IMG/VR virus record: IMGVR_UViG_3300032218_000576
Location: 1-30,679 of that record
Length of the DNA: 30,679 bases
DNA from: a virus
Lineage: Duplodnaviria; Caudoviricetes
Strand: one strand, 5' to 3'
Part shown: piece after piece, positions 12,953-22,532 of the stretch
Numbering within the stretch: the stretch's first letter is position 1
Layout of the letters: each line of letters begins with the position of its first letter
Translations under genes and position numbers: made by a program
The notes under the pieces: model-generated
The model's database searches: none
What the model was told of the DNA's origin: nothing
What the model saw: only the letters and a program-made list of their open reading frames with translations

Positions 12953-13494
12953 TGGCAGTCAATTTATCCCCTATTGGTAACGGCTTTCAGTTCTTTACCA
13001 CCACAGGTCTGCCGTTAAACGGCGGCTATCTTTATACCTACCAAGCAGGCTCCACAACGCCTTTGGCTACTTATACGGATTCGGCAGGTACTAGCGCCAA
13101 CACCAACCCGATTCAATTGGGAACGGATGGTCGTCCGCCACAAGAAATCTGGCTTACCGCTGGTTCAAACTACAAATTTGTTCTGACCGATTCCTCTAGC
13201 GTGGTGATTCAAACTTATGACAACCTTTACGGGATTATTGGAACAACTGGCAACGTTAGTGCTGTGCCTTCTGGCGGAATTATTATGTGGTCTGGTTCAA
13301 TTGGTTCTGTTCCTTCTGGTTATTACCTATGTGATGGGACGAATGGCACTCCTGATTTGCGTGACCGTTTTGTTGTTGGTTCTGGCTCAACCTATGCTGT
13401 TGGCAATACTGGCGGCTTTACTTCTTCTGTAACGTCAAACATTGGTACAAACCTGCCTTTGTACTATTCATTGGCCTTCATCCAAAAGTCTTGA
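12952..13494 (+). CDS. Short tail fibre/adaptor with tail-collar domain
   Basis: QFF...GLPLNGG.LYTYQAG.TTPLATYTD..NTNPI.L N-domain plus PSGGIIMWSG..PSGYYLCDGTNGTPDLRDRFVVG collar motif; tailspike position. Confidence 0.82.
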   Translation: MAVNLSPIGNGFQFFTTTGLPLNGGYLYTYQAGSTTPLATYTDSAGTSANTNPIQLGTDGRPPQEIWLTAGSNYKFVLTDSSSVVIQTYDNLYGIIGTTGNVSAVPSGGIIMWSGSIGSVPSGYYLCDGTNGTPDLRDRFVVGSGSTYAVGNTGGFTSSVTSNIGTNLPLYYSLAFIQKS

Positions 13495-20712: not shown

Positions 20713-20756
20713 ATGGTTTCCTAGTTACCGCTTGCATTGCGCTACGGGATGACTGA

Positions 20757-20785
20757 ACTATATAGCAAACTAGACAGGATTGCAC
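20757..20785 (-). promoter_or_regulatory. Leftward early promoter (PL-like)
   Basis: GTGCAA-17 bp-TATAGT on the minus strand. Confidence 0.65.
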
Positions 20786-20811
20786 GATAACAACAAAAAT
20801 ATTTTTAACTG

Positions 20812-20840
20812 TTGCTTTTTTGTCAATAAAACAAGACAAT
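20812..20840 (+). promoter_or_regulatory. Rightward promoter (PR-like) containing an operator palindrome
   Basis: TTGCTT-17 bp-GACAAT; TGTC-N10-GACA at 20821-20838; ATG 6 nt after the -10. Confidence 0.65.
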
Positions 20841-20846
20841 CCTTGC

Positions 20847-21008
20847 ATGGAACTTAGAGAAATTATCAAGAAAGTAGGCTCACAGAGTGAGCTTGCCAGG
20901 CTGTTGGGCGTTAGTCGTGGCGCTGTGTGGTTGTGGAAGCGTGATGGTTTGCCTCAGTCGCGTGTATGGCAGCTTCAATTGTTGAAACCGGAGTGGTTTA
21001 AGGATTAA
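20847..21008 (+). CDS. cro: Cro-like HTH repressor
   Basis: GSQSELARLLGVSRGAVWLW..LP..R..QL; first rightward gene. Confidence 0.88.
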   Translation: MELREIIKKVGSQSELARLLGVSRGAVWLWKRDGLPQSRVWQLQLLKPEWFKD

Positions 21009-21010
21009 AA

Positions 21011-21313
21011 ATGGCAAAAATTTGCCGTGTTTGCAATAGCGACATTGTTGGCAGAGAACATAGCGCAAAACTTTGCTGGCCTTGTGCAGACCCTAAAAAA
21101 AGAGGGGCTACTGATGCAATTAACAAAGTAAAAAAAGCAGTAAAAAAAGGTTTGATTGTTTCAGCTAAAAAATTGCAATGCACAGATTGCGGATTACCAG
21201 CGTTTTGTTATGACCATCGTGATTACAACAAACCATTAAAAGTTGAGCCTGTTTGCCGTGGTTGTAACTACAGGCGTGGTTCAGCAATACCATTAAAAAA
21301 GGAAAAAGTATGA
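21011..21313 (+). CDS. Zn-finger/HNH-like protein
   Basis: CRVC, CWPC, CTDC and DHRDYNKPLKVEPVCRGCN. Confidence 0.7.
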   Translation: MAKICRVCNSDIVGREHSAKLCWPCADPKKRGATDAINKVKKAVKKGLIVSAKKLQCTDCGLPAFCYDHRDYNKPLKVEPVCRGCNYRRGSAIPLKKEKV

Positions 21314-21618
21314 GTTTTGCAGAAATAGAAATAAAAGTCATCCAATGGGGTGAGGCCCGTGGGATTGTGCAAAACAGCAATCCATTTGCTCAGGCAATGA
21401 AAACGCAAGAGGAACTAAATGAGCTGGTTGATGCTATCCAGCAAGGCGACCGAGCTGCTATGGCTGACGCCTATGGAGACCTACTTGTCACGCTTGTAAT
21501 GGGCTGCGCTTGTGCTGATCTTGACCTTGTGAGCTGCTTTGAATTGGCTTATCAAGAGATCAAAGATCGCAAAGGTTTTTTGAACAAAGATGGAATTTTT
21601 GTAAAAGAAGTGGTATAG
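21310..21618 (+). CDS. MazG-like nucleotide pyrophosphohydrolase
   Basis: QWGEARGI, KTQEELNEL, DAYGDLLV, AYQEIKDRKG..GIFVKE. Confidence 0.88.
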   Translation: MSFAEIEIKVIQWGEARGIVQNSNPFAQAMKTQEELNELVDAIQQGDRAAMADAYGDLLVTLVMGCACADLDLVSCFELAYQEIKDRKGFLNKDGIFVKEVV

Positions 21619-21619
21619 T
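21611..21619 (+). promoter_or_regulatory. Extended -10 promoter upstream of the structured leader
   Basis: TGGTATAGT (TGn-TATAGT); predicted start ~21626, at the base of hairpin 1. Confidence 0.55.
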
Positions 21620-21626
21620 TTTTACA

Positions 21627-21732
21627 GAAGGTTTAGGTGTCGCATGTACTAGATGCGGATACATCTAAGCCTTCAATGGCTGACCCTCGATGATTTGTGC
21701 TAGTACCACAGGTTGTCGAGGGTTTTCTTTTT
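21627..21732 (+). ncRNA. Structured leader RNA: two hairpins with complementary loops, the second terminator-like
   Basis: Stem 21627-21645/21653-21674 with loop GTACTAG; stem 21683-21699/21707-21723 with loop CTAGTAC; followed by TTTCTTTTT. Confidence 0.7.
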
Positions 21733-21743
21733 GGATTTACAAA

Positions 21744-22532
21744 ATGGCTGGTGATTGGATAAAACTTCAAAAGGACACGCCTGATAAACCAGAAGTGCTT
21801 GCAATAGCTGCTCGGTTAGGAATTGATCAGGATGCTGTAGTTGGAAAACTTGTTCGTGTTTGGTCTTGGTTTGATACTCACACAACAGACGGTAACGCAG
21901 AGAGCGTTACTTATGCGTTATTAGATCGTTTGGCTGGCGTTACAGGCTTTGCAGAACAGATGGCTTTAGTTGGTTGGTTAAACCAAAATGGAAGCCTTCT
22001 TATCTTGCCAAACTTTGATTTTCATAACGGGGAAACAGCAAAAAAGCGTGCTCAAGGTAAAAACAGACAAGAAAAGTATAGAAGTAACGCAAATGGTGAC
22101 GCAGAAAGTAACGCAAACAGCGTGACTAATCTGTTACCAGAGAAGAGAAGAGAAGAGAAGATAGTTATTAAAGAAGGTAAACCTTCTTTGTCGGGAACTA
22201 CATTCCCGCCTTGCCCTCATTCTGAGTTGTTAAGTCTTTGGGGAAAGCATTTGCCACACTTGACGCAGCCAAGGTCATGGGAGGGGTCTAGGCAGGCCAG
22301 CATGAAGCAACGATGGGTGCAGGCTGGCAAACCATCCGCATATTCGCCAGAGGGCTACAAAACGACCGAGCAAGGCGTAAAGTGGTGGGATGCGTTTTTT
22401 GGCTACATTGCAAACGACACATCTTTGGCTAACGGATTTGAAACCAATGGACGAACATGGCGTCCAGATCTTGAATGGGTTGTCAACGCAGCAAATTTTC
22501 AAAAAATCATTGATGGGAAGTACGCAAAATGA
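21744..22532 (+). CDS. Phage replication initiator (lambda O position)
   Basis: MAGDWIKL..DKPEV..VVGKLVRVWSWFD N-domain, EKRREE linker, C-terminal DLEWVVNAANFQKIIDGKY; internal iterons. Confidence 0.82.
   Translation: MAGDWIKLQKDTPDKPEVLAIAARLGIDQDAVVGKLVRVWSWFDTHTTDGNAESVTYALLDRLAGVTGFAEQMALVGWLNQNGSLLILPNFDFHNGETAKKRAQGKNRQEKYRSNANGDAESNANSVTNLLPEKRREEKIVIKEGKPSLSGTTFPPCPHSELLSLWGKHLPHLTQPRSWEGSRQASMKQRWVQAGKPSAYSPEGYKTTEQGVKWWDAFFGYIANDTSLANGFETNGRTWRPDLEWVVNAANFQKIIDGKYAK
21892..22163 (+). repeat. Iteron-like GT(A/G)ACGC repeats, putative origin
   Basis: GTAACGCA at 21892, 22084, 22108; GTGACGCA at 22096; inverted GCGTTAC at 21904 and 21937; (GAGAA)n tract ~22140-22163. Confidence 0.6.

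Follow-up and report, generated by a model that had tools for sequence, protein, structure and literature searches.

The IncI-alpha/IncB rep pseudoknot is formed by a loop that pairs beside the Shine-Dalgarno (SD) site of the initiator and opens the ribosome site, in systems that also have a coupled leader peptide and the Inc RNA. The guanidine-IV riboswitch has a kissing loop that impedes the completion of a terminator, and the growing terminator shortens the linker and breaks the kiss (PMC11611296, PMC7736828 and PMC9788692, in the portions available). The P4 CI RNA halts transcription of replication genes in trans (PMC4825925, available in part), while in tug-of-war riboswitches a structure less than 5 nt upstream of a terminator suppresses that terminator and longer spacers restore it (bioRxiv 10.64898/2026.06.17.733018, in part).

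Here we describe a leader RNA that lies ahead of a replication initiation gene in a phage (the window, meaning the whole 30,679-nt stretch of DNA analysed). It resembles guanidine-IV (GGAM-1/mepA and the Gd4v variant) in having two hairpins joined by a pseudoknot, the 3' one being a predicted intrinsic terminator, and the likeness would extend to a kiss that opposes terminator completion via linker strain, as far as the available text of PMC7736828, PMC11611296 and PMC9788692 describes that riboswitch. Whereas guanidine-IV conserves its inner kiss pairs, the phage element varies them (22 codes) and is without an Rfam match, and whereas guanidine-IV precedes guanidine exporters (sugE/mepA-type), the phage element precedes initiators, HNH nucleases, a helicase-methylase, small ORFs and one Ant-like gene. 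Unlike guanidine-IV, it also has an extra alternative hairpin, P-alt, that would alter the spacer before the terminator. With IncI-alpha/IncB it shares long-range loop pairing ahead of an initiator, although here the partner is the loop of the terminator, and neither an SD-proximal partner nor a leader peptide was found.

The element is real and belongs to an uncatalogued leader RNA family that recurs in many uncultured phages; it covaries strongly, has a two-state architecture and carries an address code that varies between copies. Kissing-loop antitermination, for which the literature searched gave the guanidine-IV riboswitches, would with this family gain a phage leader with such a code. 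Neither the window nor 20 related loci matched any Rfam family at gathering score, so the novelty that the initial annotation had made conditional on Rfam survives; at E up to 10 the region 21400-21950 gave weak matches only, and the best of these (Chlorobi-RRM, 18.4 bits, far under its cut-off of 45) was rejected as generic terminator likeness. The element is also undescribed in the literature searched, within which the partly accessible alignments of PMC10690425 and supplement of PMC5737381 could list the motif among unnamed candidates; the readable supplement files of PMC10690425 contain none of the four 9-letter motifs sought in them.

Architecture of the leader in the window

The element and its neighbouring genes comprise the following features:

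20847..21008, + strand: Cro-like gene of the divergent early region, with P22_Cro and YdaS Pfam matches
21310..21618, + strand: MazG-like gene, the last before the element
21611..21619, + strand: extended -10 promoter box, TGGTATAGT, overlapping the mazG stop codon
21627..21674, + strand: hairpin 1, with a 14-bp lower and a 5-bp upper stem, a 3-nt bulge at 21658-21660 and 2 G-U pairs
21630..21633, + strand: 5' strand of the hairpin-1 base, which once freed can pair with 21682-21685 (predicted helix P0)
21646..21652, + strand: loop 1, code GTACTAG, kissing partner of loop 2
21668..21681, + strand: P-alt, the alternative hairpin, 21668-21671 with 21678-21681, mutually exclusive with the hairpin-1 base
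21675..21682, + strand: 8-nt spacer between hairpin 1 and the terminator, single-stranded if hairpin 1 is fully zipped
21683..21732, + strand: hairpin 2, predicted intrinsic terminator, with its U tract at 21723-21732
21700..21706, + strand: loop 2 (CTAGTAC), at the tip of the terminator hairpin
21733..21737, + strand: SD zone, weak in the window; GGAG is usual in relatives
21744..22532, + strand: replication initiation protein of 262 aa (phrog_2509, E 1.6e-57), first gene past the terminator

A pair-by-pair check found the two hairpins, the 7-bp loop match and the extended -10 box where the initial annotation had put them. The stem of hairpin 2 spans 21683-21723 and has 17 pairs including 4 G-U, and with its U tract this hairpin outranks every other terminator-like hairpin found in the window. 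All seven loop-loop pairs are Watson-Crick; the chance of exact complementarity for two given 7-nt loops is 6e-5. The predicted folding energy of the plus strand is -51.2 kcal/mol (z -7.5; 200 shuffles gave no fold as good) compared to -32.5 kcal/mol for the minus strand.

Loop complementarity and cassette anatomy across the family

A linker pattern collected 78 viral and 46 metagenome stretches. In an alignment of 37 rows (A1), two-sided changes were found at 22 of 40 pairs and at 4 of the 7 kiss pairs, hairpin 1 having them at 9 of its 19 pairs; the alignment is biased, its rows having come from a detector that demanded a loop match. Two further sets are free of this filter. Profile matches of at least 60 bits numbered 152 (151 full length) and gave 57 distinct cores, of which 56 have exactly complementary loops and the remaining one a single mismatch. 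This sole mismatched copy (L496, with one change in loop 2) is otherwise identical to L522 and is a mutant or a sequencing error. Patterns that see the terminator alone, and are blind to hairpin 1, returned 352 loci (the first pattern covered 22 of 64 parts). These include 75 distinct terminator hairpins whose 7-nt loop fits the search pattern, and for 69 of the 75 the loop of an upstream hairpin contains the exact complement. Among the six exceptions are two with the match in a 3-bp stem, one with it in a 2-bp stem, one truncated locus and one weak hairpin without a match.

Loop complementarity is kept among relatives, the point that the covariation check proposed in the initial annotation was meant to test. 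Among the 57 cores the kiss cells are Watson-Crick in 398 of 399 cases and G-U in none, while the stems hold 205 G-U against 12 A-C pairs. This covariation supports both the loop-loop pseudoknot and the plus-strand RNA that had been proposed from the window sequence. Readings as a DNA cruciform or a protein operator are rejected on the G-U bias and the loop covariation.

The pattern bears equally on the idea of a translational pseudoknot of IncI/IncB type, or of control by a counter-transcribed antisense RNA, to which the position ahead of the initiator had lent some appeal. Close to the SD and start codon we found nothing that covaries with either loop, and no third loop site by the start codon, which leaves the IncI/IncB analogy drawn earlier unsupported; of termination and translation, the two kinds of control first proposed for the pseudoknot, termination is the better reading. 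As for antisense control, the G-U bias indicates the plus strand alone, and a counter-transcript would not require loop 1 to be the complement of loop 2. A weak minus-strand promoter-like match at 21719-21690 could serve such a transcript, although such matches are at chance there (4 found, 3.8 expected). We regard this pair of explanations as scarcely credible.

Cassette anatomy was summarised for a pooled set of 90 distinct copies, in which an exact loop match was required. The promoter and terminator reported upstream of the initiator recur in most copies: a -10 box is present in 79 of the 90 copies, mostly 7-8 nt before hairpin 1 (background 9%), with the TG of the extended form in 37; 87 have a U tract with 7-8 T in 8 nt; the terminator is below -16 kcal/mol in 87; and its 3' arm is 16 nt long in 84. 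An SD-like word directly follows the U tract in 78/90, so the weak SD noted earlier holds for the window and does not hold for the family. The element usually stands at the head of a replication operon, and the initiator or other first gene begins ~18-23 nt past the strong terminator. These first genes vary, and include several unrelated initiator N-termini as well as the HNH nucleases, helicase-methylase, small ORFs and Ant-like gene; in the examined cases where another gene is first behind the element, the initiator is next. Upstream, 60 of 79 members have the stop codon of the preceding gene 8-24 nt ahead of hairpin 1, and since this spacing is not fixed, a trigger by ribosomes of the upstream gene is unsupported.

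A helicase-methyltransferase fusion gene of up to ~730 aa travels with the element (L531:1565-3879 in G001, L543, L548), and G001/G010 and G007 have a second, differently coded copy after the fusion gene, ahead of the initiator module. A family of 36-39-aa ORFs often lies between element and initiator (L109, L493, L495, L512, L558, L800, L848), for which the one member searched against PHROGs (L109) gave no match.

A two-stem RNA near the early promoter of a lambdoid-ordered phage also recalls HK022 put, whose RNA suppresses terminators at a distance and binds the beta' zinc domain (PMC9378689, in part). Both stems of a put-like antiterminator would bind RNA polymerase and confer resistance to this and later terminators. 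Here, however, stem 2 is the terminator itself and distant members have their stem sequences replaced wholesale, and the accessible part of PMC9378689 describes no loop-loop code; we therefore consider this explanation very unlikely.

P-alt and the two-state fold

The initial annotation missed P-alt, a covarying helix that competes with the base of hairpin 1, and because the two are mutually exclusive the element is a two-state one. P-alt is present in 80 of the 90 members and absent from the forms with a short hairpin 1. It is invariant in the main subfamily, in part because the first search patterns required it. Linker-free patterns recovered P-alt members with a GNRA 4-nt loop, an extended helix or a helix rebuilt from other letters, and in an AT-rich subfamily A-to-G changes of the shared strand are matched by T-to-C changes of the spacer while the 5' strand remains T. 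With one row per linker class (85 of 91 rows kept, the 6 with a short or differently folded hairpin 1 being omitted), the P-alt arms form 46 Watson-Crick pairs over 14 linker classes compared to 28.1 +/- 3.2 when permuted (0/20000), a result that is inflated by shared base composition. Shuffles of single members are weak (p 0.01-0.74).

The minimal forms with a short hairpin 1 (L837, L838, L898, L831, L730, L751, L881), some of them from AT-rich phages, have a long, mostly unstructured spacer and keep both the loop match and the terminator arm length.

In all 80 of 80 members the predicted P-alt state cuts the spacer before the terminator C run from 7-11 nt to 0-3 nt, and in the window it would shorten it from ~8 to 2 nt. 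Measured against the tug-of-war criterion of less than 5 nt, the spacer is thus 0-3 nt in the predicted P-alt state and 7-11 nt in the lowest-energy state. The helix P0, on which covariation does not discriminate, has at least 4 pairs in constrained folds of 63 of the 80 members and none in 16. The P-alt state costs a median of 8.2 kcal/mol more than the state with a full hairpin 1 (4.8 in the window) and therefore needs kinetic or tertiary help. No classical antiterminator that is stable in the full-length RNA was found, opening of the terminator base costing a mean of 12.5 kcal/mol.

The element is like the tug-of-war riboswitches in that spacer length would set the outcome and in that the terminators are of similar strength, to judge from the available part of that report (bioRxiv 10.64898/2026.06.17.733018). 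It is unlike them in having no aptamer, in a spacer that appears switchable through P-alt, and in an upstream hairpin that also pairs with the terminator loop; it may be a naturally occurring case of tug-of-war antitermination with a switchable spacer.

Because the initiator can be reached only through a strong terminator and there is no stable classical antiterminator, read-through likely depends on the order of folding, and we think it likely that the leader is an attenuator acting in cis. Of the parts it would use, the two hairpins, the 7-bp kiss and P-alt are established by covariation, and the transcript is predicted to start at ~21626, the foot of hairpin 1, from the extended -10 promoter. 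In the ON state loop 1 would catch loop 2 as loop 2 leaves the polymerase, P-alt would absorb the spacer, the freed 5' strand would often pair with the 5' base of the terminator, and the terminator would be unable to finish zipping, giving read-through into the replication genes. In the OFF state hairpin 1 would be full, the terminator would form and an RNA of ~105 nt would be released. This polarity, i.e. which of the two states terminates, is borrowed from guanidine-IV by analogy.

An alternative is that the kiss belongs to the fold of a finished small RNA, the terminated ~105-nt product, which would act on a protein or multimerise through its loops, with transcription leaking into the replication genes or carried there by a protein antiterminator. 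In its favour, every copy combines a promoter box of its own with a strong terminator, and on rough geometry an 8-nt spacer may suffice for the kiss and the full terminator to coexist. The position right before the SD and start codon of changing genes nevertheless marks a cis leader, and a finished small RNA would leave P-alt without a role; we judge it improbable. For the attenuator, ~105 nt long as it is, natural compensatory variants already exist.

Address codes and control in phages without CI

The 90 pooled copies carry 20 loop codes, and second copies add a further two, giving 22. The closing kiss letters G..AG / CT..C are nearly invariant (one search pattern set demanded CT....C) and the five inner pairs are variable. 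Kiss pairs and stem pairs show the same mean number of parsimony steps (4.1 vs 4.1), which does not show faster evolution of the code overall. The codes track the tree, with 18 changes compared to 38 when labels are shuffled; nonetheless, 6 of 22 near-identical pairs differ in code. One two-letter code switch recurs in four near-identical backgrounds, the four-substitution switches have no sampled intermediates, and the two recurrently switched codes cross-pair at about half the energy.

Our best guess for the input of the switch, again by analogy, is the released RNA. If the kiss and the full terminator do exclude each other, this RNA would have free loops, and in what is the least certain step its loop 2 would pair with loop 1 of nascent transcripts that have yet to make a loop 2 of their own. 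Initiator synthesis would then be held down by negative feedback, and co-infecting phages with the same code would be excluded. For the combined proposal, a transcription attenuator in which the kiss would allow read-through and the released RNA would switch same-code leaders off in trans, we would claim somewhat less than an even chance. In favour of a trans input are the near-identical pairs that differ in code, the recurrent switch in four backgrounds, the half-strength cross-pairing and the absence of CI, to which we add the 22 codes, an Ant/Rha-like gene behind a second copy of the element in G029, and an unrelated loop-matched leader found in the same slot of other relatives. Against it, kiss pairs change at the stem rate and codes follow the tree, as neutral, cis-constrained drift would give; no second target was found; and the difference in code between the two copies of a record is expected by chance. 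A search of 49 viral records with model R1 turned up two full copies in 6 of them (G001 and G010 represent a single phage, and G016, at 76 kb, may be chimeric), always with different codes, an outcome that for the 5 independent records has a probability of ~57% by chance as calculated from the 90-copy code frequencies. Ten genomes yielded no second target, of the seqC kind, that covaries with the code; in the 90 members the 150 nt downstream show no excess of own-code matches; and an extra code copy at 13088 in the window and own-code copies in the 10 genomes are at background level.

The counter-arguments can also be read as a case for an attenuator that works in cis only, with the same ON and OFF folds but with polymerase speed, a small ligand, or a phage or host protein that binds either the kissed or the P-alt form as input, an inert released RNA, and a code that merely drifts by compensated change. 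All of the covariation evidence is compatible with such an attenuator, the stem-like rate of the kiss pairs and the nearly invariant closing letters speak for it, and the fixed arm lengths argue for an intramolecular fold. It leaves unexplained the repeated four-substitution code switches between near-identical copies; the five inner pairs vary, unlike the conserved pseudoknot that the available portion of PMC9788692 reports for guanidine-IV; and the downstream genes have no common metabolic theme. We consider it possible but, taken as the whole account, rather doubtful.

With a trans input, the nearest precedent is P4. Like P4, the element is a replication-operon leader from which a small RNA could terminate transcription prematurely in trans, in a phage with no protein CI (PMC4825925, in part), and the antirepressor-like gene behind one copy is a further likeness to P4 and P1/P7 C4 immunity. 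Unlike P4 CI, it has one 7-nt site only, no downstream target and no evidence of processing, and the terminator is part of the RNA; Rfam C4-type models do not match the element. Of the P4 CI- or P1 C4-like immunity suggested in the initial annotation, a seqA-like upstream site (loop 1 against loop 2) is present and no seqC-like target was found in 10 genomes, and an immunity role of this kind is a plausible inference.

The gene content supports the lack of CI. The record of the window (30.7 kb, 89% complete) has a lambdoid gene order, with Erf and YqaJ recombination genes leftward and Cro-like, nuclease, MazG, element, initiator, RusA, NinB and terminase rightward; no CI-type gene was identified facing the Cro-like gene, nor any S24 domain in the record. 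Across 16 element-carrying records (13 at least 90% complete), a survey for tyrosine integrases, S24 repressor domains and ParA found none of the three. Phages of lambdoid gene order that have no CI or integrase might keep their replication genes in check through an RNA-only, self-addressed circuit that would replace CI in a large group of such phages, the leader being switch, terminator and effector at once. The cis kiss would let the replication genes be transcribed, the terminated RNA would kiss new transcripts in trans and shut them, and the variable inner letters of the loops would define mutually orthogonal groups, at least 20 immunity or incompatibility groups in all. We offer this only tentatively, as a reading well short of even probability; if the trans step is true, the family is also a ready set of orthogonal RNA attenuators.

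The closest terminases to that of the window phage are in records of freshwater-spring phages, and one family member is in GenBank (MW202710.1), ahead of the same initiator family. In the search for a host, 28 of 64 parts of the genome contigs gave 120 pattern matches, none of them a member, and no member was found in 4, 121 and 151 genomes around a Polynucleobacter and a Comamonadaceae genome (25-150 candidates scored per genome), in plasmids, or in the stretches compared of the cultured relatives CP2, YL1 and CBW1004C-Prop1. The element is likewise absent from eleven records chosen for the initiator alone, some of which carry an unrelated leader in its slot.

In the window, the divergent early control region (20713-20846) contains two imperfect palindromes that are AT-rich and may be Cro operators (20793-20808 and 20813-20833), and each of its strands has a promoter-like site. 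Two exact 12-nt direct repeats 24 nt apart lie inside the initiator gene at 22082-22117, with related copies at 21886-21912 in the same gene, and are possible origin iterons. The second copy in G029 (L1019:8746-8851) has an A-U closing kiss pair and lies ahead of the antirepressor/Rha-like gene, beside structural genes.

This unrelated leader, in the same slot upstream of the initiator (L008:2380-2500, L014, L027, L033, L046) has a promoter box, a small 5' hairpin with a 6-7-nt loop and then a three-way-junction terminator, a single strand of which complements the loop of the 5' hairpin, with a compensatory change between L008 and L027/L033; that of L008 has no Rfam match. A third type of leader, a multi-stem RNA, precedes another initiator family (L003:2030-2250 and L013:1885-2105), and by eye one of its loops appears complementary to a site near the start codon.
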